DNA of 64,000 nucleotides from an uncultured Candidatus Saccharibacteria bacterium (GTDB lineage: Bacteria; Patescibacteriota; UBA1384; CAILIB01; JAUSJZ01), in contig CAYQWZ010000003.1 of assembly GCA_964421635.1 (NCBI GenBank), positions 1,712 through 65,711 of the forward strand. The letters run 5' to 3'. This document shows positions 4,626 through 53,969 of this stretch, one piece after another. The position numbers and the translations under genes were made by a program. The first letter of the stretch is position 1. Each line of letters begins with the position of its first letter. The notes under the pieces were generated by a model. The model worked only from the letters and a program-made list of their open reading frames with translations, made no database searches and had not been told where the DNA came from.

Positions 4626-5429
4626 TCAGTAGATTAGACAATCTGCCCTTACCCCAGGTGATGTAAACTCTAGTGCCCTGCTGAGGTACGCTTGTGGCGA
4701 TTCGTCTGACTCTCTCTTAAGTTCACCTGGAACAGTAAACCCTCCGTCTTGCTCATTCATATTTTTGTAGCGGAAGGTGATTCCACCGAAGTCAAAGAAC
4801 ATTATGATTTCATCAATATCAATAACTTCAGTCAGTGTGACATCCTCAATTCTTGCTGGGGGAGCTTGAGATATGATGATGGTTCCACCTAGAGAGAAAC
4901 GTTGTAATTGTTCAAGCACGGCAGACATGTGTCTATCAAGAATCTCCTGGTAGTGAATTTGACACCAGTCAGCGAGAGACTCGACAAACATCGATCTTAC
5001 CCTTTCCCGATAGTCCTTGTAGGACTCACTGTGTTCTCGATAAACCAACCTCATGTTGGCAGTGTTTTTGTCAAAAGTGTAGTCGGAAGACATCTCTGCA
5101 CAGGTCAGTGGTACGAAGGGAATCTCTATAGCTCGGCAAAACAATCTACTATTAATGACCCGTGTGCCAACAAAATATGTATTGTCTTTTGGTTTGCGTA
5201 AGGATTGAACTATTGAGATATAGATCCAACCAATACAAGTAAGTATTAAGCATGATAGCCATGATGTGACTAAGTGATGCCAACTTTGCATAGTAAGATT
5301 CCAAAAAAACAGAGCAAAACAGATAAAACAGGCTCCTGCTGAAATAAGCCAGCCCAGCGCTAGAGAGTAGAAGGTAATCTCAAGAAGCTTCTCTTTCAGG
5401 TAGAACGCGAAGCGGCCCAACTTGGTCAT
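4626..5429 (-). CDS. Hypothetical membrane protein
   Basis: ORF-track frame. Start placed at the internal ATG (5429), which is preceded by AAGGAGGAG at 5-nt spacing. Two or three predicted TM helices; no recognisable motif. Confidence 0.5.
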   Translation of the reverse strand: MTKLGRFAFYLKEKLLEITFYSLALGWLISAGACFICFALFFWNLTMQSWHHLVTSWLSCLILTCIGWIYISIVQSLRKPKDNTYFVGTRVINSRLFCRAIEIPFVPLTCAEMSSDYTFDKNTANMRLVYREHSESYKDYRERVRSMFVESLADWCQIHYQEILDRHMSAVLEQLQRFSLGGTIIISQAPPARIEDVTLTEVIDIDEIIMFFDFGGITFRYKNMNEQDGGFTVPGELKRESDESPQAYLSRALEFTSPGVRADCLIY

Positions 5430-5523
5430 GTCCCTCCTCCTTCGTGCAACACGAAGTCGCAACCAGAGAATACAAAATTTACTACTCCGAGTCAATAGAA
5501 AGGCTATAAAACTGTAGGATTAA

Positions 5524-7050
5524 TTAAAGATCTGTTCTTTGAGAGACGCGCATAATTTCTTCTTTAGAAGTTAAGCCAGCCTTTACTTTGGCTTCCCCGT
5601 CTTCGTGCATAGTAATCATGCCGTCTTTCCTAGCGATTTCAAATAAAGTTGTGAAGTCAGTTTTTTTCAGCACGGCTCTTTCAAATTCGGCACTCGGTTT
5701 AATAGTTTCCGCAATAACCGTGCGACCAAAATATTCTAGTTGGTTCGTCTGTTCATTCTGTCTGACTTTGCGCACCAGTCTTTGGGCGACAATCAAATTA
5801 ATAGAGCCGGATAAGAAAAAGGGTTCTATATTCATATCTACTAGTCGAGGCATGGCCATTACGGCGTTGTTGGCGTGGACGGTACTTAAAACTAGGTGGC
5901 CAGTTAGGGCGGCGTTGAGGGCAATGCGAGCTGTCTCTTCATCACGAATTTCACCGATCATTATTACATCAGGATCTTGCCGCAACGCCGCCCGCAGCGC
6001 ATCGGCAAAAGAATAACTTTTTGAAGAATCAATTTGGCTTTGTTCCACGCCCTCCAGCCGATACTCAATTGGGTCTTCTAGTGTAATTATCTTTTTATTC
6101 GGCTGATTCAATTTATTTAGCAAAGCGTACAAAGAAGTAGTTTTTCCAGATCCGGTCGGCCCAGTAATTACAATCATGCCGTACGGTTTAGTTATGGCCT
6201 CATTGATTTTTGCCAAATCTTTCGGGTTGAATCCTAATTGCTTAAGGTCTAGCTGCTGTACATCTTGACGAAGGATTCGAAGCACTATACTTTCCCCATA
6301 TTGAGAAGGTAAAGATGAAACACGAAAATCAATTGACTGATTACCAACCTGCATTGAGAAACGGCCGTCTTGCGGTTTTTCCCCCAAATCGAGCTTCAAA
6401 TTAGCGTGCATTTTAATGCGGCTAACAATTGGTTTAAATTTATCTGTGCCCAAATGGATGGCCTCCTGCAACACGCCGTCAATGCGAAAGCGAATTAAAA
6501 AACCTTGCTCTTCGGGCTCGATATGAATGTCAGAAGCGCGCAGATTGACCGCCGCAGCGATAAGCAGATCTAAAAGTTCAGTAGTAGAAACATTTTGGGC
6601 GAACTTTTTTAAATCCTCAAAAGTATTAACTCGTTTGGAAAAATCTTTCTCGTCAGCCATCTTTGCTTTTTGGGCCAACTCTTTTTGTTGTTCGTCGGCC
6701 TGTTCGAGTAGCTCTTCATACAAGCTAATCATATATGCCAGACTGCTTTCAGAGATAACAACCAAAGTGAGAGTTAAATTATTTCTATCTGCCAGCTGAC
6801 GCAAAAAAGCCATCGCCTGATTATTCTCTGGGTGTACAATGCCCACCTTTACTTTGGTGCCCTGTTTAATATAGGGAGCAGCTTTCCATTTTTTAACTTC
6901 ATCAAGGGTCATTAATGAAAGGATTTCTAAGTTAGACGGAAAACGATCGAGCATTTCGTAGGGGAAGCTCATCTTCTGTGCCTTGTCGCGAGTAATTTTT
7001 TCTTCAGAGCGACGAGTAATATTAGAAATTGTGCGTTGAACGTTGGCCAT
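5524..7050 (-). CDS. pilB: Type II/IV secretion-family ATPase (GspE/PilB-like), probable type IV pilus assembly ATPase
   Basis: Walker A GPTGSGKTTSLYAL, His-box and Asp-box motifs of the GspE/PilB family, and an N-terminal GSPII_E-like domain. The start overlaps the rpiB stop (ATGA). Confidence 0.85.
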   Translation of the reverse strand: MANVQRTISNITRRSEEKITRDKAQKMSFPYEMLDRFPSNLEILSLMTLDEVKKWKAAPYIKQGTKVKVGIVHPENNQAMAFLRQLADRNNLTLTLVVISESSLAYMISLYEELLEQADEQQKELAQKAKMADEKDFSKRVNTFEDLKKFAQNVSTTELLDLLIAAAVNLRASDIHIEPEEQGFLIRFRIDGVLQEAIHLGTDKFKPIVSRIKMHANLKLDLGEKPQDGRFSMQVGNQSIDFRVSSLPSQYGESIVLRILRQDVQQLDLKQLGFNPKDLAKINEAITKPYGMIVITGPTGSGKTTSLYALLNKLNQPNKKIITLEDPIEYRLEGVEQSQIDSSKSYSFADALRAALRQDPDVIMIGEIRDEETARIALNAALTGHLVLSTVHANNAVMAMPRLVDMNIEPFFLSGSINLIVAQRLVRKVRQNEQTNQLEYFGRTVIAETIKPSAEFERAVLKKTDFTTLFEIARKDGMITMHEDGEAKVKAGLTSKEEIMRVSQRTDL

Positions 7051-8277: not shown

Positions 8278-8622
8278 TCAGTCTATTAGAAAGATTGCAA
8301 TTCCTACAATTAAGACCAGTAGCAATATAAGCATTAACCAAAGTTTTACCGTTCTCTCTTCTTTGGATAAATCTGACCAGCGAGTGCGATTCTGCTCCCA
8401 CTTATTAAAATTTACCAAACCGGCTGCTACAAATATTAATCCTAAAATTAATAAAGGATTATTATTTGTGGGAACACTGACAGCCGAGAAAATAGCACCC
8501 ATCACGAACAGATTTCGGTAATCTACCTTCTGACTTCTCTTTTTATCTACTAAGAAGAAAGCGATGCCCAAAACGATTATTGCTATTAAAATTGCAATCA
8601 GCAGCCATAAGTTTGAGGTCAT
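8278..8622 (-). CDS. Small hypothetical membrane protein (3-4 TM helices)
   Basis: Hydrophobic segments LLIAILIAIIVLGIAFFL and LILLLVLIVGIAIFL. Confidence 0.5.
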   Translation of the reverse strand: MTSNLWLLIAILIAIIVLGIAFFLVDKKRSQKVDYRNLFVMGAIFSAVSVPTNNNPLLILGLIFVAAGLVNFNKWEQNRTRWSDLSKEERTVKLWLMLILLLVLIVGIAIFLID

Positions 8623-8745
8623 AAAAAATATTTAATTACTGAATCAATTGAAGCATGTTTAAAAAATTGAAGAAAGTATAATTTTTTGTGTGTCAAAAAA
8701 TGCGATATACTAATAGCGGCTACTAGCCAAGAGAAGGAGGCTGCA

Positions 8746-10257
8746 ATGGCAGCACAGATAGCATCCAGTGGCGCTCAAGTCATTGCGGTGCACGGATACA
8801 CACCTGAACAAACTGCGACCGCTTTAGCTATGATCTCGCGTACTACTTACCCAATACTAAAAGTATTGGCAGAAGTTACTGGGGGCAAAGCTCTAGAATT
8901 CTTTGAGAAATATTTTGTTAACTATGGTCATGCTTCCATTGCCGATATGGCCACGATAGTGTTTGTTTGTGAAGGTATTTCTCAGATTAGCGCTTGGGAG
9001 CTTTGGTTTGAATATTTAGCTGGTGGGCAAGAAAAATCGACTCGGTATGGAGATTTCGGTAATAAGTCGGCTATTACCATACCTCCAGAGATTATACTAG
9101 CCGGAAAAGAAGACACATATATGAGAATTGCTGAAGGATTGCTTGTTCAATATCGTTTTTGGCTTGAAACAGTCTTTGAGCGTTATAGAACGAGCATTCC
9201 AAAGCCAGACGGAATGAGCGACAGACAGTACGAGAGTACTCTCAGGGCGCGCGCTTTCGATGTTGCTCGTTACTGGCTGTTTGGTGGAATTAAGACTACT
9301 GTTGCTCAAGTAATGAGCATTCGTATTTTGGAACGGCAGCTTTGTCGTATGATGGCTTCACCTTATTCTGAGGTGCGAAAGCTGGCGGAGCAGATTCGAG
9401 TGGCTACTATGGAGGTTCCCCCACACACTCCTGAAGGAATGGAGAGTGTTTACACTGAGCCCGTGGCTGCTTCGTTAGTCAGACATATTGAAGCCAACCA
9501 ATTCCTGATCAACCTAGGAAACAAGCGTTATCGATGCGCCGAGCCATATGATAGAGGCTTTGATTATCAAGACTTGAGCTTGGTCGAATCGACCTTCTTA
9601 TATGATTGTGATCCGTTGGTGCTGCAGGCTTCTTTGCTTGTTTACGAAGGGGCAACTGTGCCACTAAGTTACATTATGAAACAGGTTGCGCAAGAGAGTC
9701 GAAGCAGTGTTGAAGCGATGATTCACTTCTATCTTCAAGATAGGGGGCCGCACGATGAACTGCCTTTGGCCATGGCGGCTGCCCGCGAGTGTATGTTTGA
9801 AGTAAGACTTGATCGCGGAGCAGCTCGAGACTTTCATCGACATCGGGCTGGGGTGCAGCTACATCAACGCATTGGTGGGCATCTTGGCTTTGCTATACCC
9901 GATGTTGTGGTTCAGATGGGTCTTGATGATAGGTGGGCTCACACTATGAGAGAGACAATTAAGTTAGTAGACCAACTAAGAGGAACTTTGTTTAATATGT
10001 TTGCTGGCCAGCGTTTGGACTACGGAGCAGACTATCTTTACCCGTTTGCTTGTCGGCAGGCTAGCATTTACGCAGGTGATACAAGGGCGATGACTTATCT
10101 TTGTGAATTGCGCACCAAGCCTGCAGGCCACTTCTCTTACCGCGAAGCTGCTTGGATGATGTGGCAGCAGATGTGCGAAAGGTTCCCTTGGATGGAATCT
10201 GAGGGTCGGGCTATTCCCTTCGCTCCTGACTCTGAAATTGATATCTTTCAGCGGTAG
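8746..10257 (+). CDS. thyX: ThyX-like (flavin-dependent thymidylate synthase family) protein with two tandem ThyX-like domains
   Basis: Start chosen at the ATG preceded by GAAGGAGG (6-nt spacer). The N-terminal half has a ThyX-like block (VIAVHGYTPEQTATALAMISRTTY; GHASIADMATIVFVCEGISQISAWELW...STRY) but lacks the RHR motif. The C-terminal half has MFEVRLDRGAARDFHRHRAGVQLHQR, where RHR is retained. Confidence 0.55.
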   Translation: MAAQIASSGAQVIAVHGYTPEQTATALAMISRTTYPILKVLAEVTGGKALEFFEKYFVNYGHASIADMATIVFVCEGISQISAWELWFEYLAGGQEKSTRYGDFGNKSAITIPPEIILAGKEDTYMRIAEGLLVQYRFWLETVFERYRTSIPKPDGMSDRQYESTLRARAFDVARYWLFGGIKTTVAQVMSIRILERQLCRMMASPYSEVRKLAEQIRVATMEVPPHTPEGMESVYTEPVAASLVRHIEANQFLINLGNKRYRCAEPYDRGFDYQDLSLVESTFLYDCDPLVLQASLLVYEGATVPLSYIMKQVAQESRSSVEAMIHFYLQDRGPHDELPLAMAAARECMFEVRLDRGAARDFHRHRAGVQLHQRIGGHLGFAIPDVVVQMGLDDRWAHTMRETIKLVDQLRGTLFNMFAGQRLDYGADYLYPFACRQASIYAGDTRAMTYLCELRTKPAGHFSYREAAWMMWQQMCERFPWMESEGRAIPFAPDSEIDIFQR

Positions 10258-10270
10258 CTTCGGCTATCAC

Positions 10271-10317
10271 AAACCCTACCCACTCAAAGTTGTCCGTACG
10301 ACAGGGTGGGTTTTTTT
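10271..10317 (+). terminator. Intrinsic terminator after thyX-like gene
   Basis: AACCC(T)ACCC...GGGTGGGTT stem followed by ttttttt. Confidence 0.5.
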
Positions 10318-10351: not shown

Positions 10352-11167
10352 ATGGCTAATCCAGAAATGCCTTCTAGGCACGAAGGTGAAGTTGACGAAG
10401 CGGAAATTAAGAAATTAGGATTAATAAGTAGTATAGCTGAACTAATACGCACCTCACCTTACGGCAAACAAATCCTTGCAGTTATTGCGGCGGGAGTAGC
10501 ATCAGTTGGTGCTCCAAAGCCGGCAGAAGCAATGACGGCGGTAGAAGAGAAAATGCAGGCAGCTCTTACCTACAGAGTGACCAGCCAAGTTGTCGGATTA
10601 GCAGAAGGAGAAAGGCTACAACCAACCCAAGATCTACGCGAAGCAATGGAAAGATCGCGCAATGCAGTGTTAAGTGAATATTTACAATTGGCTGATGACC
10701 AGGAAGTGGCTAAACGTTTTTACGAGAGAGCTTCCGAAATATTAGATAGTGTCAAACTAAGTGAAGAGATTGATGAGGAAGCAAAACTGTCTCTACTAGA
10801 TTACATGACCATTAATGTTATGTTGGCGACTGGCGAATCACCAAGTAATTTAATTAAGGAAGATGGGCCAACAACAACGGATGAGCAGGGAACAGGCTGG
10901 CTAGACAACAATCAGCTGAAGGTAAAAGACTTGATGGATCATATTACAATTTTACGCAATGAACCTAGCCCAATAAGTGGTCGATCCCTTGAGGATATCG
11001 CAAATGTTGCCAAAGGCATTGATAAGCAGAACGAAAAAGATTTTCGTCATTTAATGAACCAAGCAGATATTGAATGGGCCATAGCTGCGCTAGCACTAGA
11101 ACTTAATGATGAAGAGGATGCTGAAGAGCGCTATTCAGCTGTTCTTGAAAACGAACCTCCAGCTTAA
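10352..11167 (+). CDS. Hypothetical acidic protein (271 aa)
   Basis: Long ORF with a terminator downstream; no recognisable motif. Confidence 0.5.
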   Translation: MANPEMPSRHEGEVDEAEIKKLGLISSIAELIRTSPYGKQILAVIAAGVASVGAPKPAEAMTAVEEKMQAALTYRVTSQVVGLAEGERLQPTQDLREAMERSRNAVLSEYLQLADDQEVAKRFYERASEILDSVKLSEEIDEEAKLSLLDYMTINVMLATGESPSNLIKEDGPTTTDEQGTGWLDNNQLKVKDLMDHITILRNEPSPISGRSLEDIANVAKGIDKQNEKDFRHLMNQADIEWAIAALALELNDEEDAEERYSAVLENEPPA

Positions 11168-11220: not shown

Positions 11221-11310
11221 TGGCGGAGAGGGTGGGATTCGAACCCACGAGACCCGTGAAGGCCTAACGGTTTTCAAGACCGTCCTATTCAACCACTCTA
11301 GCACCTCTCC
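11221..11310 (-). tRNA. tRNA-Ser (anticodon UGA), class II with a long variable arm
   Basis: Manual fold: acceptor GGAGAGG, anticodon stem ACGGT/ACCGT, loop CTTGAAA, long variable arm, T-arm GTGGGTTCGAATCCCAC, 3' CCA encoded. Confidence 0.85.
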
Positions 11311-17431: not shown

Positions 17432-20400
17432 TTACCATGCAATATGGATTACATCCCAGAAGTCAGGGGAGGTGCAGATGCCGTAATTCTTCGGATCACC
17501 AGTAGCGTTTGAGTTACAGGCTCCTGAACGATAGCGCAAATTGAGAGCGTAAATTTGGTCAGCGTATTGGCTGTCTTCTTGATATAGGTCATGATTTTGT
17601 ACAGAAGTTTCGATTCCCTGAACCTTATTGGCGTCATCGGCCGACTCGTTAATGCGGTGAATTAATACTTGAGTAGGATAAAAATCGGAAGTGTAGTATT
17701 CAGCCCCGCGCTCTTCTCCCATAAAAAGGTCAGTTACCAAATTAATCACCTTGCCGCGCGCCGCCTCTTTGAATCCGTGGAGTTTTTGCACTTCATTTGT
17801 CGGATCAAATTCGCCGAAATAGGTACCCTTTAATTTACCAATATCATTCAGCGTCTCGGCCGCTGGCCACTGAGTGTACGGCACATTGCCCGTGCTCGGG
17901 TCGAAAGGTGGGGAGAACTCTCCCACCTTACCCACAAAAGGATAATAGCCGTCGGCGGTGGCTTTGGTAGTTATTCTAGTTTTGCCAAAGCCAAAGATTG
18001 TGACTAACACAAAGATGGCTAAGCTGACGAAGAACATTGGGCCGGTGCCAATTATTAAGGCGGTTAAAACTAAACTTAGTGCACCCGTAATTGTGCCTGG
18101 TGGTAAACCGATAGCGGTTTCAATTTTAGCAATCTCTTTGCCAAAAATTAAGTCTACTACATAAATTCCTAGCTCAATAGCCGCGTTAACCATTTGCGTT
18201 TTGAGCATGGCTATCTGTTCAGCACTCTGTTTTAATTTTACGGCTTGACTGTATGAATCGTAAGTTTTGTAGAAATTGTATGAAAGCTGGTAGGCATGCG
18301 CCAGTTTACCAGCTTGAATTCCCAGAATTTGTTCACCAAAGTAGAATGCTCGACCAAGCAGCCAGTTGGTATCGTAAAGCTCTGATAATCCTTTTACACC
18401 TACTCCTGAAATTGAGAAGGATTGATCGTTGCCGTTAAGCGCAAAGCCAAACACACCGGCCAAGGTGCCATCAACTAAGCCTAGGTCTTTAAATAGGGCG
18501 GAGCCGAACAGATCGTCTTCAAAACCAGAGAGACGGACTAATCCTTGTTCCGTTAGAAGCTCATTAATATTAGCGCTGTTGCCCTGAATCATTTCAATAG
18601 TGGCCTTAATGGTTTGCTGTTCTGTCAGCCAGCCCAACCCTTGACTGTCTAAATCACTGCGGAACTGCTTGGCCAAAACATTGGAGCTAATATAGGCAAT
18701 AGCGTTTGTTCTCTCTTCAGGCGTTCCTTCGAATAAAATTCGAGATAAGCCAGGCGCTACTAATCCTTTTTGATCGAGTAGCTTCGATAAACCAAAGTCC
18801 ATAGAGGCGTAGCCGAACTCTTTGCCAATGTAATCCCAAGAAGTTTGGGCGACCATTTGAGTGCTCTTGGTGGCGGCAGCGCGGGAGCTATCTGTCTGTA
18901 CAGCCGCTTTTATGCTGTCTAGGGTGGCTTGGTCTAGTCGCTCGTCAGCGGTGTCGTAGCTGGCATCGTTATTTGTTTGTGCCACTTCAGAGTCTGGTTC
19001 TTCAACCACATTCTCATTAGCTGTTTCGGCGTCACCACCTTCAAAGTTTTGTTGTAGCTCGTTTTCGGTGTCAGTGCGTTTATTATCTAAACTTAGCTCA
19101 GCGCCAGCCGCCACCGCCTGCAACACTAGCTGCTCTACTTCATTAGCTAATCCTTCTTCCTCGGTTAGGGCGGGAGCATGGCTGCTGGTTTGCAAAACAT
19201 TGCGAACTCTATTAATTTCACCATCGACATCGACGCCATCTTCGCGTGCTTCTGTAATAGATCTATTGGCGGTGCTTGCGAAGGATACATAACTGTCTTT
19301 AGTAGACAGAGCCTCAATATTTAAATCGGCGATAGCCATAACGGCGTTGATAGGAACTTGGAAGAACGGCCAAACTTCGCCTCCAATTTGTTGCTGAATG
19401 TACTGGCCAGCGATATCTCTAAACTCGCTTAAGGCGCCTACCATAGCTGCAGTAGGATTAACTCCTGCTAACTCGAAGTGACCTGAATCGCGATTATATA
19501 AAGCGCCAAACAGCACTCGTTGCATTACTCTCTTGGCATTAATGCTACGGTCATAATCATTAGTGTTAGTATCTGACATATTGATACCGAAAGCGCGGCC
19601 AGCTAATAATCGGACTCCTTGGTCGAATAGAATTTCATCTGCCTGTTTTGGTTTAGCAATGAGGTCGGCCATGGTGCCCGCTTCAAATCCTAAAGATTTA
19701 TCAATATTGAAGCTGAAGGCCTCAGACATAATTTTATAAACCCGAGCTAAACTGGCTGAGTCATACTCAGACTGTTTAAAGAAATCGATGAGAAAATTAC
19801 GATTGCTGCTGTTAGAAATTAAACCATCAAAAATTGGATCCTCAACACCTAGTCTTTGGAGTATGGCTGCAAACGCCTCGCCACCAAACTCTGTGGCTCC
19901 CTGCTCTCCAGCCATAGATACAAGCTGAGCGGTACTGATTTTTCCTTCAATCCACTTTCGAGTTGGCCCGTTATTCTCTTCATCTAAAATGCCTAGTCGG
20001 CGGTCAATGCCGTTCAGTCTAATTTCGTAGTAGTTATTTGATAAGCTTCCACCGAAGGCAGCGTCAATACTGCTGTTGATTAATCCGTCGTACTGATGAG
20101 CTAGAGCAAAATAATCATCTAGTAGATAGAAAATTCCTCGGTCAGCGCCTTCAGATTCAACAAAAATCTCTCGTGCTTCAAGATAAGATAACCTCATAGA
20201 AGTGGTCATCTCGTACATCTCTGTTTCAATGTCGTTCATCTTTTTGGTAATAGCTTTTGCTTCATCAGGAACAGGAATACTAAAAGCAGCCATTATTTTC
20301 TTCTGCCAGTCTCTCTTTTCAAGATCGTTCATAGAACCGGAGCCTTTCAACATCTCTTCTCTGGTGCCCTTAAATTCGCCTGTTTGTAATCCTAATATCT

Positions 20401-23400
20401 TTTCAATTCTGGCCTGCCCCATGCTCTCTACCGGATTATCTGTTAAGGTGAATCCTTTTGGCAGATCAAGTTCAATGCCCAGTTTGCCTAAAGTGGCGCT
20501 GATTATTGCCTGCTGCCGGTTCTCATCGCGCTCCGCGTCTGTGTTACCGTCAGGATAAATTACAGAATTGAAAAAATCACTTGGCAGCTCTAAGGTTTGC
20601 TCTAACTTACGACCACCAACACCCACCAAAGTTTTAACAGGATCACCCAAAATAAAGTCAGCGATATCGTCGGCCGTTAGCCAGTCAGGAATTTTGACAC
20701 CTAGCTTCTGAGCCAGTGAGCTAATGGTGCGAGCGGTAATATGCTCGCGACCCTTTTCGATTAGGCTTTGTCGGTCTGTTTCTCCGCCATCATTTCGAGA
20801 CGAGCCAACAGCGAAGAATAAATTATCGGCAGTCTGGTCGCCTTCGTAGAAAAGATAGAGTGCCTCTTTTGGTAAATCTAGGGTGTCAGCTAATTTTTGA
20901 ATTCCCAAATGCACCAAAATGTTATCTATATTGCCTCCAGCTAAAGCGCCTTGTGCCGAACTGATCAGCAATTTGTCAGAGCCAAAAAGTATTCGTAAAG
21001 GATTCAGAGGGACATCTTCTAGTGAACCAACATTCGTATTTAAACTCTCCAAACTAATCTCGCTTGGAATGTGCGAGCTGTAAGCAACAGAATCGCCCTC
21101 CATAATTTCCATCACCGCTCGTTCGATATCTGAGGCGGCGCCTAATATCTGATTGACGGAATCGAAACTGTCTGAATCCTCAACAAAATCAATAATGCTA
21201 AAGAGGTCATCTTTAACATCGCGCACAGTGTAGCTGCTCTCTAGGTTGGTTAAATTGTCACCTAGCTCTACCACGCCCGCAATAGTGCGTTTGCTGTTGT
21301 TAATTATGTTTTGTACCTGACCCTGTACTCCATCTGGGAAATCGCTGACGCGCCGCTCAATGATGCGCAAGGAGTCATAAATTTTTTGATAGCGATTAAC
21401 ATAGAAAAAGATATCAGAGGCTAATTCAGTGTCTTCCAGCTGTTCGTATTCTGGGCTGTCTTGTACTTTTTCTATTAAAAGGCGGCGACCGATGCGTCTA
21501 AATTCGTGGGCTGGTTTATCACTCAAAAAGACATCGGCGTAGAAGTTGTCTTTTGGATTAGAGGCTACGAAATTTGTGTCACCGCTAACATTTGTAACAC
21601 TTGTTCTAAACTCTTTTTGGTCGTGGCTAGGTAGAGTTTCAGACAGGTACCAAACGCCAGCTATTTTGAAAGCGCTCTCGGCGTTGCTGCCCCCAATAAT
21701 ATCGAACATCGTGCCAGCCGGAAAGCCGAAAACTCGGTCGCGTTGCTGTGAAGTACCATCAGGGTTTTGACCATAGTCGCGGTAGTCATGCAGTGTTTGT
21801 AAAGAGTCATTCAAAATATTTAAAGATGCATTATACAGGGCTATTTTTTTCTGCTCTTCTTGAGTGAGATTGTTGGCAGTGATTATTGAGCCGTTGCCAG
21901 GGACATTTAAGCTAGCGATTAATCCTTCAATGGTGCCAGTCAAAGTTTCTAAAGAAGAGATTTCGGACGCTGCATTGCTTAAGAAACTTGTGCGAGCATC
22001 TTTGTTAGAAGGATTATATGTAATCATGCCTTCAAGCGGATCATAGGTTGGCCCAGGATTTTCTGCTTGGTAGGCCTTAGCCTTAAGCCGTTCAGCTATT
22101 TGTACAACACTGTTAGCAATATCTCCTTGTCCGGCATCCTGTAAATATTTTTTTAGAATAAACAGTGAGCCTGACTGGCCAGCCCCTCCTTCGTTCTCTC
22201 TATTGGTCAGCTGCTGCACTATAAATAGAGGGCTGGCTGGAGTATAATCTTCAGCTGCATTTGCAGATTCGACATGGTAGCGACCTAAATTAGCATCCCA
22301 GACTTTTTGGCCGGCCGCCTGTTTGAACTCAGCCACATTGCCAGAGTTAATAAAGCGCAAAGTAGTATTGGCTGGTAGTCGCAGTCGCTCATCAATTATG
22401 ATGGCATTTTGAGCGGCAAAAACAGTATTGTATCGAGCCTCTCCTATAGCGGCTTTGACTTCATTAATATCATTTGAAGCGAAGGATCTCTCTGGTACGG
22501 GCAAGCGCTCTTCAATGTATCCCCATCCTAAATGCTCCTTAAACCCATTCACTGAGTCGTAGTTATTTAGGGCGTAACTTTTGATGCCCAAGAGGTCTGC
22601 TAGCCGCTGTTTTCCAATGTTCGTAAGTAAATCGTTAGGACTATCTCCTTCAGGCAGTCTATCGAGCCCAATCTGTTTAGCTACAAACTGACGGCCAGTG
22701 TACTCTTCAATATCGGCCAAAGAGTTGGCGTTGCGAATTGCTTCAGGGTCAACATTAAGAGCTCCTCCCAAAACAATAGCACCAAAATCTTTAATAGTGT
22801 CGCCAAAATTAAACTGTGAAATATCTTGGCCGTCGAGCAGAGTTCCCAGCAGCTGGCCACCGACAAACTTGGCTAAATCTTCTGTACTCAAGCTGTCGAG
22901 GGTGCGGCCATCAAAATTGAATTCACCTAAAATTTCTTCTGCATCTAAAAGCTCAAAAATGCTATTAAAAGATAGATCTTGCAGCATTTCATGAATAGCC
23001 AACTCGGGTAGAGGTTCGGCGGCAATTCCGTCATCTGATTGCCAAGCGACTTTAATGTTTATTGGTTTTTGGAACTTATAGCTGTTAGAGCTGCTGAATA
23101 TTCCGGTTTTTCGAATGCGGGTGGTGACTCGAATGCGATCAATCTCTGAAATATCAATAGCCTGTGAAACGGCGTGCGAGCCTTCATTAAACTTAATTGG
23201 CACATCTTGGCCGTTGATTTTTTGAGTTGAAAAATCGCGGCTAGTTAAATCTACGAAGTGAGGGCTACGGGTAGTCTCTAAGCTTTTATCCCATTTACCG
23301 TTACCGTTGGTGTCAATGTATTCTTCGCCTTCATTCTGCTCGTAAATTCCGTCACCGTCATCATCTAAAATTGGTTCTGCTCGGTTCTGCTGCTCCTTGC

Positions 23401-24316
23401 CTTTCTCAATAAACTGAGTTAATCTTTCAACTTTCAAGTATTCTCGGCCGGCACCTCCATCGCTGCGTGGTTTGAGTAGGTAGTCAAGGGCTAAAATTAC
23501 CCGTACATCAACGCGCGGAGGGTCGCAGTATTGGTCTTTATCGCGGGCACCATTAATGAATTCGTTGTCTTCGCTAGCGTTCCAATTAAGACAATCCCCG
23601 TTGTTCTCACCTGTAATAGCCACTAAATCTCGGCTGTGCTCAAATACCAAGCGCCGCTCATAAGTAGTTAGAGGATTCAGCCGTTCTTGTAGATCAGAAT
23701 TAATTGTATAGAAGTTTGGTAGGTATTTTGTTAATACTTCAGCCGTCAGATCTTCTTCAAGAGAAGATGAAATATTATTGCTCTCATCATTATTAATATT
23801 TTCTAGTTTTTGAGCATCTTCTCTTGGAACATAAGCATAAGTTCGGCTATTGTCGTCTTGGCTAACACTTTCATCTGGGATAAAAGATTGATTTTCAATC
23901 TTATCAATAACCTCTCGTTTATTCAGAAAAATAACAACATCATTGTCGTAAGCTGTTTCAAAACTGTTGTGTTCATCAATGACAAGGGTTAGGGCATAGC
24001 TATCAATGTCGTCGGGAAATCCTTCTCCAGGTGTGTAGACAAGGTCGTGGTCGTTGTTTGTAATAAAAGATCGACTCAATGGCGCTTCTAAATCATTTGC
24101 TCTTGGTATATCGCCTAAATCAGAAGGATTGGAACTTTCTTGATTCAAAAGCTCAATATCTTCCCCACTTCCTTCAAAGTCGCTTTCATCTGATGAGTTG
24201 GGTAATTCATCAGGATCAATTTGGGCATAAACAGTCAGAGTACTTAAAGGTAAAAATAAAGATAGTGAAGCAATTATATTTAAGCAGATGAATTGTTTAA
24301 ATAATCCTTTTTTCAT
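17432..24316 (-). CDS. Giant surface/envelope protein (2294 aa) with N-terminal signal peptide and C-terminal TM segments
   Basis: Uninterrupted 6.9-kb ORF. Signal peptide MKKGLFKQFICLNIIASLSLFLPLSTLTVYAQ. Two hydrophobic helices near the C-terminus (LSLVLTALIIGTGPMFFVSLAIFVLVTIFGFG). The start overlaps the upstream gene by 4 nt. Confidence 0.7.
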   Translation of the reverse strand: MKKGLFKQFICLNIIASLSLFLPLSTLTVYAQIDPDELPNSSDESDFEGSGEDIELLNQESSNPSDLGDIPRANDLEAPLSRSFITNNDHDLVYTPGEGFPDDIDSYALTLVIDEHNSFETAYDNDVVIFLNKREVIDKIENQSFIPDESVSQDDNSRTYAYVPREDAQKLENINNDESNNISSSLEEDLTAEVLTKYLPNFYTINSDLQERLNPLTTYERRLVFEHSRDLVAITGENNGDCLNWNASEDNEFINGARDKDQYCDPPRVDVRVILALDYLLKPRSDGGAGREYLKVERLTQFIEKGKEQQNRAEPILDDDGDGIYEQNEGEEYIDTNGNGKWDKSLETTRSPHFVDLTSRDFSTQKINGQDVPIKFNEGSHAVSQAIDISEIDRIRVTTRIRKTGIFSSSNSYKFQKPINIKVAWQSDDGIAAEPLPELAIHEMLQDLSFNSIFELLDAEEILGEFNFDGRTLDSLSTEDLAKFVGGQLLGTLLDGQDISQFNFGDTIKDFGAIVLGGALNVDPEAIRNANSLADIEEYTGRQFVAKQIGLDRLPEGDSPNDLLTNIGKQRLADLLGIKSYALNNYDSVNGFKEHLGWGYIEERLPVPERSFASNDINEVKAAIGEARYNTVFAAQNAIIIDERLRLPANTTLRFINSGNVAEFKQAAGQKVWDANLGRYHVESANAAEDYTPASPLFIVQQLTNRENEGGAGQSGSLFILKKYLQDAGQGDIANSVVQIAERLKAKAYQAENPGPTYDPLEGMITYNPSNKDARTSFLSNAASEISSLETLTGTIEGLIASLNVPGNGSIITANNLTQEEQKKIALYNASLNILNDSLQTLHDYRDYGQNPDGTSQQRDRVFGFPAGTMFDIIGGSNAESAFKIAGVWYLSETLPSHDQKEFRTSVTNVSGDTNFVASNPKDNFYADVFLSDKPAHEFRRIGRRLLIEKVQDSPEYEQLEDTELASDIFFYVNRYQKIYDSLRIIERRVSDFPDGVQGQVQNIINNSKRTIAGVVELGDNLTNLESSYTVRDVKDDLFSIIDFVEDSDSFDSVNQILGAASDIERAVMEIMEGDSVAYSSHIPSEISLESLNTNVGSLEDVPLNPLRILFGSDKLLISSAQGALAGGNIDNILVHLGIQKLADTLDLPKEALYLFYEGDQTADNLFFAVGSSRNDGGETDRQSLIEKGREHITARTISSLAQKLGVKIPDWLTADDIADFILGDPVKTLVGVGGRKLEQTLELPSDFFNSVIYPDGNTDAERDENRQQAIISATLGKLGIELDLPKGFTLTDNPVESMGQARIEKILGLQTGEFKGTREEMLKGSGSMNDLEKRDWQKKIMAAFSIPVPDEAKAITKKMNDIETEMYEMTTSMRLSYLEAREIFVESEGADRGIFYLLDDYFALAHQYDGLINSSIDAAFGGSLSNNYYEIRLNGIDRRLGILDEENNGPTRKWIEGKISTAQLVSMAGEQGATEFGGEAFAAILQRLGVEDPIFDGLISNSSNRNFLIDFFKQSEYDSASLARVYKIMSEAFSFNIDKSLGFEAGTMADLIAKPKQADEILFDQGVRLLAGRAFGINMSDTNTNDYDRSINAKRVMQRVLFGALYNRDSGHFELAGVNPTAAMVGALSEFRDIAGQYIQQQIGGEVWPFFQVPINAVMAIADLNIEALSTKDSYVSFASTANRSITEAREDGVDVDGEINRVRNVLQTSSHAPALTEEEGLANEVEQLVLQAVAAGAELSLDNKRTDTENELQQNFEGGDAETANENVVEEPDSEVAQTNNDASYDTADERLDQATLDSIKAAVQTDSSRAAATKSTQMVAQTSWDYIGKEFGYASMDFGLSKLLDQKGLVAPGLSRILFEGTPEERTNAIAYISSNVLAKQFRSDLDSQGLGWLTEQQTIKATIEMIQGNSANINELLTEQGLVRLSGFEDDLFGSALFKDLGLVDGTLAGVFGFALNGNDQSFSISGVGVKGLSELYDTNWLLGRAFYFGEQILGIQAGKLAHAYQLSYNFYKTYDSYSQAVKLKQSAEQIAMLKTQMVNAAIELGIYVVDLIFGKEIAKIETAIGLPPGTITGALSLVLTALIIGTGPMFFVSLAIFVLVTIFGFGKTRITTKATADGYYPFVGKVGEFSPPFDPSTGNVPYTQWPAAETLNDIGKLKGTYFGEFDPTNEVQKLHGFKEAARGKVINLVTDLFMGEERGAEYYTSDFYPTQVLIHRINESADDANKVQGIETSVQNHDLYQEDSQYADQIYALNLRYRSGACNSNATGDPKNYGICTSPDFWDVIHIAW

Positions 24317-25986
24317 TCTGTTAGTTGTGGCCTAGATACCTTTAGGATTTGATTTATTTGGCGATTGTCTTGGAATAATATAGCCTCATCTTCACTGCGA
24401 GGGCCGCCATCTGAACTGCAGAAATAGACTCTTTTTTGAGAATCAGAGAAGACAAACAGACCGTAGTGTGTTTCGTTGTCAACTTCTTTGGAGGTGATAA
24501 TAATGTCGCCATCCTCTAATGATTCGGCGTCGAAATCTTCGCCAACCTTGCTTGGTTTTAAGATTGTGCTAAAGGTTTTTGGTAAATCTACAGCATTAGG
24601 GCTGAGACACAAAATACAGTTACTGTCGTTGCCGCGAATCAGATATGTAATAAATCCGCTGGGGTCGCAGCCGCGTTTACCGCCCACCACATTGCTGCCG
24701 TCGCGAAGAGGCAAGCTTGTACTTTTAGGATTATCATTAGTACTGCCGACCCAATTTCCACTATCTCCAACCGCAGATATTGCCCTGCTGGCTAGCTCTT
24801 GCGGAGTTTTGACTGTCACGCCGAGAGTGAGATTAATTAATTCATCGAGATTTTGAAATAGCTCTTTTAGTTTATCTTCAATATCTTCTGTGCCGCCCAC
24901 AATCTCTTGAGCTAAAGTTTTGGCAGTGGCTAAAGGTCCCGCCACTATGGCTTCAGAGTTTGGTTTGCCAGCAATCTCTTCTTCAACCTTGTCTAAAAAC
25001 TCAATAATGCCACTTTCTGTCAGCTCCTTAGCCGAAGTAATCTGTCGAATCTCTTCATCACCAGCTAAGGTAGCTAGCCGTTCAATGGCTTCTTTGACAG
25101 TAGGATTAGACAGGTCTGCAGGCTGAGATAAAGTACCGCCGCGTGATCCGCCGCCAATTAAACTGGCGATGCCAGCCCCAAGACCTATTAATAAAATTAC
25201 AATTAATATTGGCCCAATATTGGCCACAATGAAAGGTATAACGACTGAGGCAACGCGAGCGCCCAATTGGGCGGCAATTTTAGCACCGGCCTGAGCTGCC
25301 TTGCCAGCCGCTCGCGCACCTGTTTTAACAGCAGAGCCAGCGGCTTTTGTCCCTGCCTTCACTCCAGATTTTGCTGCTTTTTCAGCTGCCCCTTTAGCCG
25401 CTTGACCACTGGCTTGCCCAGCTTTGCTTGCTGCCTGTTTACCAATCTGACTACCAGTTTTCATTGTTTGCTTGCCGGCTTTGCCGCCATATTCGGTAAC
25501 CGTTCTGGTGTCAGGAGTTTTGCTAGCTCTGGTTTTAGGGTCAATTTGTCGACTTTGTGGGTCTTCGCCTCTTTTATCAGCTGGCCTCTCAGCTTTCTGC
25601 TCTCGGGCTTTCTCTAAACTATCTTGTTCTTGTTGTCTGTTTTGGTCTGACTGCGACTGTTCAGCCCGTTCCTGCTGTTGCTCAAGCTGCTCCGACTCAT
25701 CTTCTTCTGAATATTGAGCGTTATTTAATTCTTCCAACTCCTCGTCACTAAGCTCCAAATCTTCATCAAAATCTTCTTCGCGATCACCAGTCGGCCCAGC
25801 ATCGCGACCAGCCCCAGACAGCGGAGCACCTTTCTGTCTTAACAGCGCCGCCAAATTAACAACATTTGAGGCCCCCGGTTTGGAAGGAACATTTCGACGA
25901 CGGATTATCTCAGCGCGCAAAGACCGACGGCTGCGCCCCATCCTTCTATTATTGTTATTTGGTTTTTTGTTAGGTGTATTGGCCAT
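24313..25986 (-). CDS. Membrane-anchored protein with a C-terminal NlpC/P60-like cysteine peptidase (cell-wall hydrolase) domain
   Basis: Basic N-terminus, acidic region, Ala/Lys-rich repeats, one TM helix (VVIPFIVANIGPILIVILLIGLGAGIASLIG), then GCDPSGFITYLI ... GDIIITSKEVDNETHYGLFVF, which resembles the Cys/His motifs of NlpC/P60 domains. Confidence 0.5.
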   Translation of the reverse strand: MANTPNKKPNNNNRRMGRSRRSLRAEIIRRRNVPSKPGASNVVNLAALLRQKGAPLSGAGRDAGPTGDREEDFDEDLELSDEELEELNNAQYSEEDESEQLEQQQERAEQSQSDQNRQQEQDSLEKAREQKAERPADKRGEDPQSRQIDPKTRASKTPDTRTVTEYGGKAGKQTMKTGSQIGKQAASKAGQASGQAAKGAAEKAAKSGVKAGTKAAGSAVKTGARAAGKAAQAGAKIAAQLGARVASVVIPFIVANIGPILIVILLIGLGAGIASLIGGGSRGGTLSQPADLSNPTVKEAIERLATLAGDEEIRQITSAKELTESGIIEFLDKVEEEIAGKPNSEAIVAGPLATAKTLAQEIVGGTEDIEDKLKELFQNLDELINLTLGVTVKTPQELASRAISAVGDSGNWVGSTNDNPKSTSLPLRDGSNVVGGKRGCDPSGFITYLIRGNDSNCILCLSPNAVDLPKTFSTILKPSKVGEDFDAESLEDGDIIITSKEVDNETHYGLFVFSDSQKRVYFCSSDGGPRSEDEAILFQDNRQINQILKVSRPQLTE

Positions 25987-27264
25987 TCAAGGAGCTAATT
26001 TTAGAGGAAAACTATAAAGAGTATTGTTGCTGACAAAATGCAATGTCGATTCATCGTTCGTCAAATAAATATGCTCGATATTATTGGTAATAGTTGGTGA
26101 GGATTCATACAGCTGAACCTCTTTTGAACTGACATTAAACTTAATTAATTGCGAGTTGCCGTTATCGTCAATGGCCTGAACTGTTAGGAAGTTGCTGTCG
26201 TCGTGCCAAACGAAAGCGCCAGATTTTGCCAAAGTGAACAGCTCGTCGCTTTCTCCTGTATCTGGATTAATTAGCACCAAGACAGGCAAAGCGGTGTCGT
26301 TCTCTTCTGCTACCAAGTAGGCGCCATTTGGGCTAAAACTGGCTTTAGATACACTCTTAGCGTTAGCGGAGTAGAGCTGATCAATAGCTAAATCGTAAAT
26401 AAAGAGATTGCCTTTGCTGTATAAAGGATTATCAATAACGGCGATTTTTGTGCCCGCCTTTGACCAAACAAACTCAGGAGCAGATAATTTGTCTAAAACA
26501 GCCAGAATGTTTTTATTATTCATACCGGTGTCAGCAGTACCAAAAACTGGTTCGTTGTCGCGGAACTCAACAAAACCTAGACGGTTGTGAGTGGCGTCAT
26601 ATTTAATATCTAGCACATTAGGATCAGCTAAAAGTTTAAACTCAGAGTTAACGAAATCTGGTTTAGTGAAGTCAAAAATGTACCAAATATTTTTGCTATC
26701 TTTGGTAATCACTGCTTTGTGCGAAGTAATCCATTCTAAATCGGAATTTCTTTTAAAGATTGGGTCTGAGATGGCTACTTTTTCGCCCGTGTCTAAGTTA
26801 TAACGAACAAGCGTGGTTAAATCTCGGCCTAAATAGTAAAGGGTATTAGTCGCTCGGTCGTAAGAAAGATAGGTGGCTTGACCAACCACATCTGATTCAG
26901 GATTAGAAGCGATAGTGACTGTTGGGGTAATTTCCACCGTTCTGCCTCGGGGAGCTTCAATAACCTCTTTATGGTTTACTTCTTGACCCGACATAATGCT
27001 AATGGTGTGTTTACCCGGAATGGTGACGAATTTAAAAGTATCCTCATCAATTTGTGCCAGACTAACTTCTTGCCCATCAATTAAAATTTCAACTTCCTGA
27101 TACTGTAAATTTATTAAAATGGTGCTGCGATTTAGAATGAATCTATTGACAGCTAGTGCCAGCAAAAAAACCGCCAGCAAAGTAGACAAAATTACATACT
27201 GCCGATGCTTGTACTCTTTCGAGGTGATATGTTTAATTTTTTTGATGACTTTTTTAAATGGCAT
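25987..27264 (-). CDS. Membrane-anchored protein with PEGA-like and TolB-like beta-propeller-like regions
   Basis: N-terminal TM helix; segment VEILIDGQEVSLA...GKHTISI is PEGA-like; repetitive beta-strand-rich C-terminal region with SPNGAYLV-type blades. Confidence 0.45.
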   Translation of the reverse strand: MPFKKVIKKIKHITSKEYKHRQYVILSTLLAVFLLALAVNRFILNRSTILINLQYQEVEILIDGQEVSLAQIDEDTFKFVTIPGKHTISIMSGQEVNHKEVIEAPRGRTVEITPTVTIASNPESDVVGQATYLSYDRATNTLYYLGRDLTTLVRYNLDTGEKVAISDPIFKRNSDLEWITSHKAVITKDSKNIWYIFDFTKPDFVNSEFKLLADPNVLDIKYDATHNRLGFVEFRDNEPVFGTADTGMNNKNILAVLDKLSAPEFVWSKAGTKIAVIDNPLYSKGNLFIYDLAIDQLYSANAKSVSKASFSPNGAYLVAEENDTALPVLVLINPDTGESDELFTLAKSGAFVWHDDSNFLTVQAIDDNGNSQLIKFNVSSKEVQLYESSPTITNNIEHIYLTNDESTLHFVSNNTLYSFPLKLAP

Positions 27265-27265
27265 T

Positions 27266-27679
27266 TTATTTTTCTACAACTTCAAAACTAATTGACTCAA
27301 CTGGTGCGTTTATTTTTTGTAACCAGTTTTTTGCGTCTACTTTTATACTATCCTGTTGCTTAAAATATTGTGAGGGTATTTCTAACCTTAAACTATTTAA
27401 ATCAACGAAATATAGGCTGTAATTGTCTGCAAAGTGGGGTAAGAAATCTAGCCACGGGTTATTTTTAATTTTTTCAGAGTAAGGCTGTGCTATCTCGTCA
27501 TTATCACTAGGTGCTGATTCAGCAACATCTGGTTGATTATCTCCAAAGTCAGTTATCTCAGTATCTGATTTTGTTGTTGGTGCTTTAATAGCTTTGTTAT
27601 TTGATGAGATCATAAAAAATCCAATTACGATTAAGACAATAATAAGTACGACAATTATTATTTTGGTTCTATTATCCAT
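27266..27679 (-). CDS. Small membrane-anchored hypothetical protein (137 aa)
   Basis: N-terminal TM helix IIIVVLIIVLIVIGFFMI; overlaps the upstream gene by 22 nt, suggesting translational coupling. Confidence 0.45.
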   Translation of the reverse strand: MDNRTKIIIVVLIIVLIVIGFFMISSNNKAIKAPTTKSDTEITDFGDNQPDVAESAPSDNDEIAQPYSEKIKNNPWLDFLPHFADNYSLYFVDLNSLRLEIPSQYFKQQDSIKVDAKNWLQKINAPVESISFEVVEK

Positions 27680-29130
27680 AATCCTTTTTTATTATTACTA
27701 ACGATGTTAGTTTTTGCTGCTGTGATATTTCTTTTGTAAGAATCAGCTAGAAAAATAATGTTACGGCTGTTATCTATGGCAAATAAAGTTACATAATGTC
27801 CACCACTAGTAAAATCTCCACTTTTCATTAAGGCGATGACTGGTTTGCCTTGGGCTAGGGCGCTAAGTGATGCTTGCCAACCAGCACTGGTTACTTTTAA
27901 TCCAAACAAACTTCCGACGCTGTTAAGCATTGCGCCACTTGTGCCGCTACCACAAAGTCGCCACCTACCTCTGGTTGATAGTTCAGCAGTAACTCCTGGG
28001 TCAAATTTTCCACCAAATTCTTGATTAATAGAGCTATTAAAGCTGTTTGTTGAAAGAACTCCTCTTTCAACATAATAAGCGATGGCATTAGACAGTGATG
28101 TTGGGCCACAGCCAGAAGAAGAAATATTGGCACCACAACTTACAATGGATGCGTTTGTATTACCTAATTGACCTGCGCTGTTTACACCTTTATAAGGCGT
28201 ATTTGCCCAAGGGCCTTGGTGCTGAGTAAAGCGTGGAAAGTCCGCAAAGGTTCTATAAAAACCATCAGCTTCTTTTGTTGTTCCTCCTTTGTAAACTTTT
28301 CCATTAAAGGTTACGCTATCTGGTATTACAATAGAAGAAGGATTTTGCAGAGGTCTATTTGTAAAGTTAATATTACCTCCAATTTGAGTTAAATCACCAG
28401 TAAAAGCATTTCCTTGATAAACTGTGACGCCTGAAACCTCACAAGCGTATAGGTCGTTATCTACCCCTTGGCAATTCATTCGACTGCGAGCTGCCTGTTC
28501 ATCGCGCGTGCCAGTAAAGGCTAAATCGAGTCTCTTTGTCATATCCTTGCCAGTCGACAACATCGTTTGGTAATAGCGTTCGTTAATATTAGTAGCAGTA
28601 CCAAAGGTATCAATAACAGGAGCTGGTTGGTCGGTGTAACCGGGAATGTGTAGCCAGTAAGCAGTGCCTGTCTGTACTTGTGCACTGTCGCTGGTTTTTA
28701 TTGGCCACTTAGCCCCGTTTTTCCACATTGTTGGGTGATTAACTGCAATGCCACCAACTGCGTAATTATTATTGGAGAAAGCTGAGACTAGCTCGTAGTT
28801 AGCATCGTCTTGATATTTCTTCCGATCTTCATTAGAGAGGCTACAATGATTGATAATTTGTTGAGTAGTTTTATTGCGGTAGGCATAATTTACACCAGAG
28901 AAGGTTCCGCAACCACCCTCTATTTTGTCTGAAACCTTCCACCCAGGAGTATAAAAAGTGACAAAAACTGTTTCATCAGATGAGATAGAACGAAGACCGG
29001 CGCTACTAAATATTCCTCCCGTGTTTAAAAATCTTAGCCACCCAAAAGGGCTGAAAATAAGACCAACAAATATACCGGCAATAGCTATTATTACCATAAA
29101 GACGATAATATATGATAAATATTTGTTCAT
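27658..29130 (-). CDS. Membrane-anchored protein with a C-terminal peptidase C39-like (papain-fold) domain
   Basis: N-terminal TM helix. C-terminal SCGANISSSGCGPTSLSNAIAYY ... GGHYVTLFAIDN resembles the CGP(A/T)SL and downstream His motifs of Peptidase_C39-like domains. Confidence 0.45.
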   Translation of the reverse strand: MNKYLSYIIVFMVIIAIAGIFVGLIFSPFGWLRFLNTGGIFSSAGLRSISSDETVFVTFYTPGWKVSDKIEGGCGTFSGVNYAYRNKTTQQIINHCSLSNEDRKKYQDDANYELVSAFSNNNYAVGGIAVNHPTMWKNGAKWPIKTSDSAQVQTGTAYWLHIPGYTDQPAPVIDTFGTATNINERYYQTMLSTGKDMTKRLDLAFTGTRDEQAARSRMNCQGVDNDLYACEVSGVTVYQGNAFTGDLTQIGGNINFTNRPLQNPSSIVIPDSVTFNGKVYKGGTTKEADGFYRTFADFPRFTQHQGPWANTPYKGVNSAGQLGNTNASIVSCGANISSSGCGPTSLSNAIAYYVERGVLSTNSFNSSINQEFGGKFDPGVTAELSTRGRWRLCGSGTSGAMLNSVGSLFGLKVTSAGWQASLSALAQGKPVIALMKSGDFTSGGHYVTLFAIDNSRNIIFLADSYKRNITAAKTNIVSNNKKGLWIIEPK

Positions 29131-31619: not shown

Positions 31620-31621
31620 AA

Positions 31622-47038: not shown

Positions 47039-47539
47039 TTAAGATTTAGGTCCTAAGATATATGCAGTGTGACGAGTGCCGCCGCAGCTACTATCATCGG
47101 CCTGGATAACAGTTTGATTAAGTGGGTGTTTGGTGCCGATTCGATCTAACTCCGCGCCGAACCAGAAGGCGTATTGACGACCACTACCCCAAGAAGTATT
47201 GGTTGGACTAGCATAAATATAACCGCTACAAATTGGTGGAGGAAAGGTAGCAGTGCCTGAAGAGGGTTTAGGATCAACTGGCAGTGTATTAATTAAGCCT
47301 TGGTTTTCTAAGATAGTTAATTGTGAGGTGCTATAATAATTACCATTATTGAGCGGATACGCATTATATATTCCGCGGTAACTCTCAACTGCAATAGCCA
47401 AGTTGCCAACATCTGTAATGCGAGCAGTGTCGCGACTAGTCTTTTGTTGCTGAGAAAACCCTAAAGTGGCTGCTACAGATAAAAGGGCAACAATAGATAG
47501 TGCCACTAAAATTTCAATTAAAGAGAATCCTTTTTTCAT
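47039..47539 (-). CDS. Type IV pilin-like protein (prepilin N-terminal cleavage/methylation domain)
   Basis: MKKGFSLIEILVALSIVALL class III signal peptide. Confidence 0.75.
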   Translation of the reverse strand: MKKGFSLIEILVALSIVALLSVAATLGFSQQQKTSRDTARITDVGNLAIAVESYRGIYNAYPLNNGNYYSTSQLTILENQGLINTLPVDPKPSSGTATFPPPICSGYIYASPTNTSWGSGRQYAFWFGAELDRIGTKHPLNQTVIQADDSSCGGTRHTAYILGPKS

Positions 47540-53881: not shown

Positions 53882-53890
53882 GAATTATTT

Positions 53891-53966: not shown

Positions 53967-53969
53967 GGT

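Follow-up and report, generated by a model that had tools for sequence, protein, structure and literature searches.

A putative flavin-dependent thymidylate synthase in Candidatus Saccharibacteria with its catalytic residues divided between two fused ThyX domains

Gene, domains and active-site motifs

The 64,000-nucleotide stretch of DNA analyzed here (the window) comes from an uncultured Candidatus Saccharibacteria bacterium (contig CAYQWZ010000003.1) and carries, at 8746..10257 of its forward strand, a gene whose product joins two ThyX-like domains in a single chain and is a putative flavin-dependent thymidylate synthase. The open reading frame (ORF), taken from the ORF list and read from the sequence, starts with an ATG at 8746 and closes with a TAG stop codon ending at 10257, which gives a protein of 503 amino acids plus the stop. 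On the same strand, five nucleotides 5' of the ATG, the sequence reads as a Shine-Dalgarno element (AAGGAGG, 8734..8740). The gene is followed by a terminator-like feature at 10278..10317, also on the forward strand, in which RNA folding places a hairpin at 10278-10311 (-17.1 kcal/mol, z = -1.98 against shuffled sequences) ahead of seven T residues at 10311-10317. A consensus terminator scan missed this hairpin because its stem contains an internal loop and an inner hairpin. Both signals had been claimed in the first-pass annotation, which was made from the sequence alone, and both are present. A TTG upstream at 8686 would add 20 residues and was rejected as the start: homologues have no counterpart to the extension and begin near the ATG at 8746, and it is the ATG that the Shine-Dalgarno element precedes.

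The Pfam Thy1 profile (PF02511) matches the whole protein in two stretches with a score of 84.4 bits, against a gathering cut-off of 24.8. Searched separately, the first half matches over residues 21-226 (E 3.1e-13, 50.4 bits, profile positions 10-190 of 191) and the second over residues 347-481 (E 1.8e-9, 38.1 bits, profile positions 58-191 of 191), so that there are two separate Thy1 matches, each far above chance level. We place ThyX domain 1 at residues 21-226 (8806..9423, forward strand) on the basis of the Pfam match, an alignment to the Mycobacterium tuberculosis ThyX and column conservation. ThyX domain 2 is placed at approximately residues 275-503 (9568..10254, forward strand), where the Pfam match at 347-481 and alignments to the Corynebacterium glutamicum and M. 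tuberculosis enzymes are joined by a structural model, and the extent of the domain is taken from the secondary structure.

The two halves have diverged far from each other. BLASTP of half 1 against half 2 found nothing significant, and an hhalign comparison of alignments of the two halves gave an E-value of 6e-5 at 17% identity, with N-terminal parts that could not be aligned to each other by sequence; the failure of BLASTP and this low identity in the profile-profile comparison mark the halves as very old copies. An AlphaFold2 (AF2) single-chain model, built from 69 family sequences, is compact and confident (predicted local distance difference test score, pLDDT, 91.1; predicted template modelling score, pTM, 0.90), and in it the secondary-structure elements of residues 20-96 recur one for one in residues 290-373. 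Foldseek matched the model only to ThyX structures in the PDB, each with a probability of 1.00 and each spanning about half of the query, with a template modelling (TM) score of about 0.6 when normalized to the target and about 0.3 when normalized to the query. Membership of the Thy1/ThyX superfamily is supported by the 84.4-bit profile score and by the fold seen with AF2 and Foldseek alike. These comparisons indicate a protein of two ThyX folds that go back to an old duplication within the chain, which is visible through profiles only. The first-pass annotation had described two ThyX-like halves in one ORF; the Thy1 search returned two independent matches for them, and the predicted single chain is compact and confident at a pLDDT of 91.

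Profile alignments to the M. tuberculosis and C. glutamicum enzymes were used to map the active-site residues onto the two domains. In domain 1, F88-E89-Y90 (9007..9015, forward strand) lies under R95-H96-R97 of the M. tuberculosis ThyX, the site of the canonical RHR motif (R78-H79-R80 in Thermotoga maritima), which this domain has lost. After a spacing of seven residues (FEY-x7-STRY), the catalytic loop S98-T99-R100-Y101 (9037..9048, forward strand) is kept under S105-Q106-R107-Y108 of M. tuberculosis, corresponding to S88, R90 and Y91 of T. maritima; S88 and Y91 are required for ThyX catalysis, and R90 has been proposed to assist Y91 (PMC11940539). Domain 1 also retains G61-H62-x-S64, of which G61-H62 corresponds to the canonical G-H (H53) element, together with R175 (M. 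tuberculosis R172, T. maritima R147) and R201 (M. tuberculosis R199, T. maritima R174).

Domain 2 presents the complementary picture. It holds the only RHR of the protein, R365-H366-R367, within R361-D-F-H-R365-H366-R367 (9826..9846, forward strand), a stretch that aligns to the RHRH segment of solved ThyX structures; R361, which is followed by D362 and H364, corresponds to T. maritima R74. The domain keeps R456 at the position of T. maritima R174 and a conserved R-G-x-H336-D337, while the canonical G-H position could not be mapped in the alignment. Seven residues beyond the RHR there is an arginine (RHR-x7-R) and no S-x-R-Y: the conserved S, R and Y are all missing, and D429 stands in place of the T. 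maritima R147 equivalent. The complete RHR-x7-S(-x-R-Y) motif is found in neither domain, and is reached only by combining both.

The first-pass annotation had anticipated most of this pattern, namely FEY in place of RHR in the first half, an RHR retained in the second, and a complementary loss and retention of motifs, and the mapping agrees with it on each of these points. It had also taken STRY for a loss of SQRY, and this has to be reversed. The conserved residues of the loop are S, R and Y, and its second position is variable (44 of the 69 family sequences have T and 25 have S, against Q in M. tuberculosis), so STRY is a retained motif.

Compared with the single-domain enzymes of T. maritima (TM0449), M. 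tuberculosis (Rv2754c), PBCV-1 (A674R) and Helicobacter pylori, each domain shares the fold at a TM score of about 0.6, and the pooled catalytic residues of the two domains are the same; the chemistry is presumably also the same. A canonical ThyX, in contrast, is one domain of 220-260 amino acids; each subunit carries the whole of RHRx7SxRY, and the four sites are identical. Here the motif is split over two fused domains that are 17% identical, and no more than two sites would be expected per dimer.

The tandem family and the divergent copy in the origin region

The architecture is not peculiar to this gene. A search of 5.8 billion proteins returned at least 1810 homologues (best E 1.5e-104), and a profile search run exhaustively over 1.84 billion representatives gave 1869 clusters (50% identity, E<=1e-30). 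All 120 of the matches listed are 456-596 amino acids long and cover 92-100% of the query, and the end-to-end matches to tandem ThyX proteins have coverages of 93-100%, identities of 31-40% and E-values from 1e-62 to 1e-104. Against the family profile the window protein reaches 557 bits, and it fits the family description of single chains of about 470-530 amino acids with two Thy1 domains. Homologues that are named at source are called 'FAD-dependent thymidylate synthase' or 'thymidylate synthase ThyX', and in a few cases 'hypothetical protein'.

A scan of one genome per species found tandem ThyX in at least 570 species. The best 80 loci listed fall in Terriglobia, Bryobacterales, Nitrospira, Acidimicrobiia, Verrucomicrobiia, Thermotogae and Wallbacteria, and include those of the cultured carriers Tumebacillus flagellatus GST4, Acidobacteriaceae bacterium ZG23-2 and Bryobacterales bacterium F-183; members from the candidate phyla radiation (CPR; Yanofskybacteria) and from Chloroflexi are among the protein matches listed. 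Ten more distant clusters that were looked up added Armatimonadota, Myxococcota, Tectomicrobia and Eisenbacteria, and no Chlamydia was among these ten. The ThyX of Chlamydia trachomatis (CT632) is an active flavin-dependent thymidylate synthase of about 529 amino acids, roughly twice the usual length; were it to belong to the tandem branch, it would be the relative with characterized biochemistry. The genes have no universal operon partner, the commonest neighbouring family being present at 18 of the 80 loci.

The division of motifs is conserved throughout this family. In the alignment of 69 sequences, numbered here by the window protein, S98 and R100 are present in every sequence and Y101 in 66, while R361, D362, H364, R365, H366 and R367 are each present in 68. 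Where domain 1 once had its RHR the family consensus is D-E-Q/P (D and E each in 65 of the 69, Q in 42, P in 22). Among 237 full-length members, 226 have RHR only in the C-terminal half and SxR[YF] in the N-terminal half, and none has a complete RHRx7SxRY within one domain. The split is neither unusual nor unique to this gene, as the same partition is found in about 95% of several hundred members examined, from many phyla.

As a separate observation, D88, E89, W92 and D93 of the loop that replaces RHR in domain 1 are nearly invariant in most tandem ThyX sequences, which suggests that this loop may have gained a new conserved role. The window protein (FEYLAG) and its nearest relative, P0002 (ELPLVD), do not carry this signature.

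The duplication has been noted before. Valas and Bourne (2009) described a duplicated, uncharacterized ThyX as the only thymidylate synthase of most Chloroflexi, Dehalococcoides excepted (PMC3224940), and in the literature searched this single line was the sole mention of it. A survey of clusters of orthologous groups (COG) found ThyX in six of six Acidobacteria genomes and ThyA in none of the six. The family appears to work as a thymidylate synthase, given that it is the sole such enzyme in many Chloroflexi, that Acidobacteria have ThyX without ThyA, and that there are cultured carriers. On these sequence comparisons the split motifs are the rule in a large family that is already annotated and whose duplication was noticed in 2009, and the window gene is a divergent member of that family; it is not a new kind of system.

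How divergent this member is can be seen in several ways. With the tandem proteins of Chloroflexi, Acidobacteriota, Nitrospira and CPR bacteria it shares the two Thy1 domains and the same partition of motifs; it differs from them in being 31-40% identical to other tandem ThyX proteins and in the former RHR loop, which reads FEY-LAG against DEQ-LWD in the family. When proteins are clustered at 50% it represents itself, and the closest protein beyond its cluster reaches 40% identity. Of 97 family columns with a conservation of 90% or more, the window protein deviates at 17 and P0002 at 21; the deviations of the window protein include H70T, D88F, W92A, D93G, Q102G and C369G, and its mapped catalytic residues are all kept. 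Judged by sequence, the window protein and P0002 form a divergent branch of tandem ThyX.

The gene lies in the chromosomal origin region, in the order recF, dnaN, dnaA, a T2SSE ATPase, rpiB, the interval that contains thyX, a tRNA gene and yidC. The genome is that of a member of the Patescibacteria; the best named relatives of its DnaA, at about 50% identity, are Patescibacteria, Berkelbacteria or CPR2. The interval between rpiB and the conserved tRNA gene (11224-11310) is variable among relatives, and here holds thyX and a co-oriented ORF for an acidic protein of 271 amino acids (10352-11167) with no Pfam match. One relative, with 63% identity in DnaA, retains the gene order on either side, tRNA gene and yidC included; the interval there consists of a His_Phos_1 gene and small ORFs, and thyX is absent between rpiB and the tRNA gene. 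In another relative, with 91% identity in DnaA, the gene beside rpiB resembles the window ORF at 8278-8622, and the 519 bp past that gene show no similarity to ThyX. The database contains no ThyX more than 40% identical to the window protein, yet it contains relatives with DnaA identities of 63-91%. The tandem ThyX gene is also oriented opposite to its neighbours. We read the gene as specific to its lineage at this locus, since the lack of any ThyX above 40% identity, the opposite orientation and the gene's own Shine-Dalgarno element and terminator agree on this; horizontal gain is likely, the alternative being loss in the relatives.

Base composition was considered as a sign of foreign origin and set aside in favour of this locus comparison, which is the better argument. 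The first-pass annotation was right that the gene is richer in GC than its surroundings (0.471 against a mean of 0.417, standard deviation 0.033, over 39 window ORFs; 0.421 against 0.373, standard deviation 0.052, at third codon positions), but the excess is mild (z of about 1.6), four further window genes have a GC content of at least 0.46, and as evidence of foreign origin it is weak.

The window ORFs were also scanned for other genes of thymidylate and folate metabolism. The scan covered 39 ORFs (38 of at least 150 amino acids and one of 114), with two more assessed through precomputed Pfam annotation on matching contigs, and found no thyA, folA, glyA, dut or tmk among them, in 64 kb of the genome only.

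Enzyme assembly and alternative readings

ThyX is a homotetramer with four active sites, each formed at the interface of three monomers (PMC4913046; PMC11940539). In the PBCV-1 enzyme monomer A contributes Gln75 and Arg182 to the uracil pocket, and monomer B contributes Ser88/Gln89 (PMC3498832). In T. maritima numbering, R78 stabilizes the reduced flavin and H53 is supplied by the third monomer (PMC11940539). PBCV-1 Gln75 lies immediately before the RHR, and the counterpart of Arg182 in T. maritima appears to be R174. Because the Gln75/RHR side and Arg182 belong to monomer A, we would assign R361, the RHR and R456 of domain 2 to a 'monomer A' set, and because Ser88/Gln89 belong to monomer B, the S-x-R-Y loop of domain 1 to a 'monomer B' set. 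R175 is placed in the latter set because R147 of the T. maritima structure is on the side of the Ser loop. Under this assignment the residues missing from domain 2 are exactly those of monomer B, and what domain 1 lacks is the RHR. The first-pass annotation had spoken of a division of labour between the halves, and this fits the published geometry, in which the RHR side and the Ser88 loop come from different monomers (PMC3498832).

We consider it probable, from the sequence comparisons above, that the protein belongs to a tandem branch of flavin-dependent thymidylate synthase in which two fused ThyX folds each lack half of the catalytic inventory. Domain 1 would supply the substrate and flavin loop, S98-x-R100-Y101, together with R175 (T. 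maritima S88, R90, Y91 and R147), and domain 2 would supply R361, R365-H366-R367 and R456 (T. maritima R74, R78-H79-R80 and R174). A dimer of the fused chain would then form a pseudo-tetramer with two complete composite sites, each made from the RHR side of domain 2 and the Ser loop of domain 1, and the two reciprocal sites would be dead; we infer two live sites rather than four since the two residue sets reach one site from different monomers. The histidine of the third monomer could come from either domain, as G-H62 of domain 1 or H336 of domain 2. The enzyme would convert deoxyuridine monophosphate (dUMP) to deoxythymidine monophosphate (dTMP) with flavin adenine dinucleotide, NAD(P)H and methylene-tetrahydrofolate, like other ThyX, and the gene suggests that this Patescibacteria cell may be able to make its own thymidylate. 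To the fuller proposal, that tandem ThyX is an obligate pseudo-heterotetramer with two composite sites per dimer, and that the window copy is horizontally acquired, divergent and the cell's own route to dTMP, we give an even chance.

Several observations weigh against this interpretation. The protein scores 38.7 bits against TIGR02170, the NCBIfam thyX equivalog model, for which the cut-off is 87.9. Because it misses this cut-off, and because no single domain holds a complete motif, the label of canonical ThyX would be wrong for it. The PDB holds no solved structure that spans both halves and no tandem ThyX entry, and we found no biochemical study of a tandem ThyX in the literature searched. 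When the HRHR of domain 2 is aligned to the RHRH of solved structures, its register is uncertain by two residues, although the loop Ser and Arg are absent from domain 2 in either register. Finally, domain 1 keeps R201, which resembles R174 and is present in 67 of the 69 sequences, and G-H62, both of which would be superfluous if each domain had strictly one role; the R-G-x-H336-D337 of domain 2 does not fit so strict a division either.

The missed equivalog cut-off is also what would be expected had the protein turned to another flavin-dependent methylation or hydroxymethylation, for instance of another pyrimidine nucleotide, as in PolB of nucleoside-antibiotic biosynthesis. Such a change of function would suit a protein that is at most 40% identical to any other among 5.8 billion, that departs from the family at 17 of 97 conserved columns (H70T, D88F, W92A, D93G, Q102G and C369G among them) and whose gene is absent from the syntenic locus of relatives, and the PolB-type structure 6j61 is weakly present among the PDB matches to domain 2 (E 0.077). 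We nevertheless regard it as unlikely: all of the residues that handle dUMP and flavin are kept (G-H62, S98, R100, Y101, R175, R361, R365-R367 and R456), the protein aligns end to end with proteins named as thymidylate synthases at source, in a family that is the only such enzyme in Chloroflexi, and the gene is surrounded by housekeeping genes of the origin region, with no neighbours from a biosynthetic cluster.

Slightly less probable still is that only one domain is functional and the other a decayed scaffold, a pseudoenzyme domain without catalytic residues. Domain 2 does cover just the C-terminal two thirds of the Thy1 profile (58-191), and the N-terminal parts of the halves cannot be aligned by sequence, both of which a decayed domain would explain; but neither domain has the complete motif, the sole RHR being in domain 2 and the sole S-x-R-Y in domain 1, and both residue sets are essentially invariant across the family, which argues for selection on both domains. 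That the gene is a non-functional relic, or an artefact of assembly or annotation joining two adjacent thyX genes, might be suspected from the variable locus and the divergent sequence, but is highly improbable and largely refuted by an identical 503-amino-acid protein on independent contigs from four sources, an intact ORF with Shine-Dalgarno element and terminator, more than 1800 homologues with the same single-chain architecture, and the kept catalytic residues.

The split arrangement of tandem ThyX has a wider bearing. ThyX is an antibacterial target, and its mechanism relies on subunits sharing their active sites. A naturally fused protein with split catalytic residues offers a ready-made system for asking which subunit provides what, and how many sites are needed, and bears on the evolution from a homo-oligomer to a fused pseudo-hetero-oligomer. 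The tandem branch is the form of ThyX in many Acidobacteriota, Nitrospira and Chloroflexi and in some CPR bacteria; a dimer with two composite sites, if confirmed, would be a 'half-of-the-sites by design' version of flavin-dependent thymidylate synthase.

Other features of the window

Further genes in the window were recorded in the course of this work. On the reverse strand, an ORF of 289 amino acids with no Pfam match (4626-5495) lies between dnaA and the T2SSE ATPase (5524-7050). In both of the relatives L084 and L085, dnaA directly neighbours the T2SSE ATPase gene, with some 80-120 bp between the two, and the ORF can for this reason be read as an insertion beside dnaA.

A giant ORF of 2294 amino acids (17432-24316, reverse strand) has no Pfam match at E<=0.001, and a counterpart of 2344 amino acids occupies the same place beside rpmH-yidD-yidC in L085. 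In a co-oriented run of genes at 24313-32593, also on the reverse strand, one gene encodes a TraG-like P-loop ATPase (29799-31619) and another a Peptidase_C39_2 protein (27658-29130), while the rest have no Pfam matches; this run is a possible module for type IV secretion or a conjugation-like process.

The gene at 36203-38215 on the forward strand encodes a membrane H+-translocating pyrophosphatase (887 bits to PF03030), in what is apparently a reduced Patescibacteria genome. Four successive small genes at 47039-49090 (reverse strand) each encode a prokaryotic N-terminal methylation motif of the pilin or pseudopilin type, and directly adjoin a gene for a ClpB-type AAA+ ATPase (49123-51897). 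Three adjacent tRNA genes are located at 53808-54045 on the reverse strand, among nine tRNA genes in total in the 64 kb.

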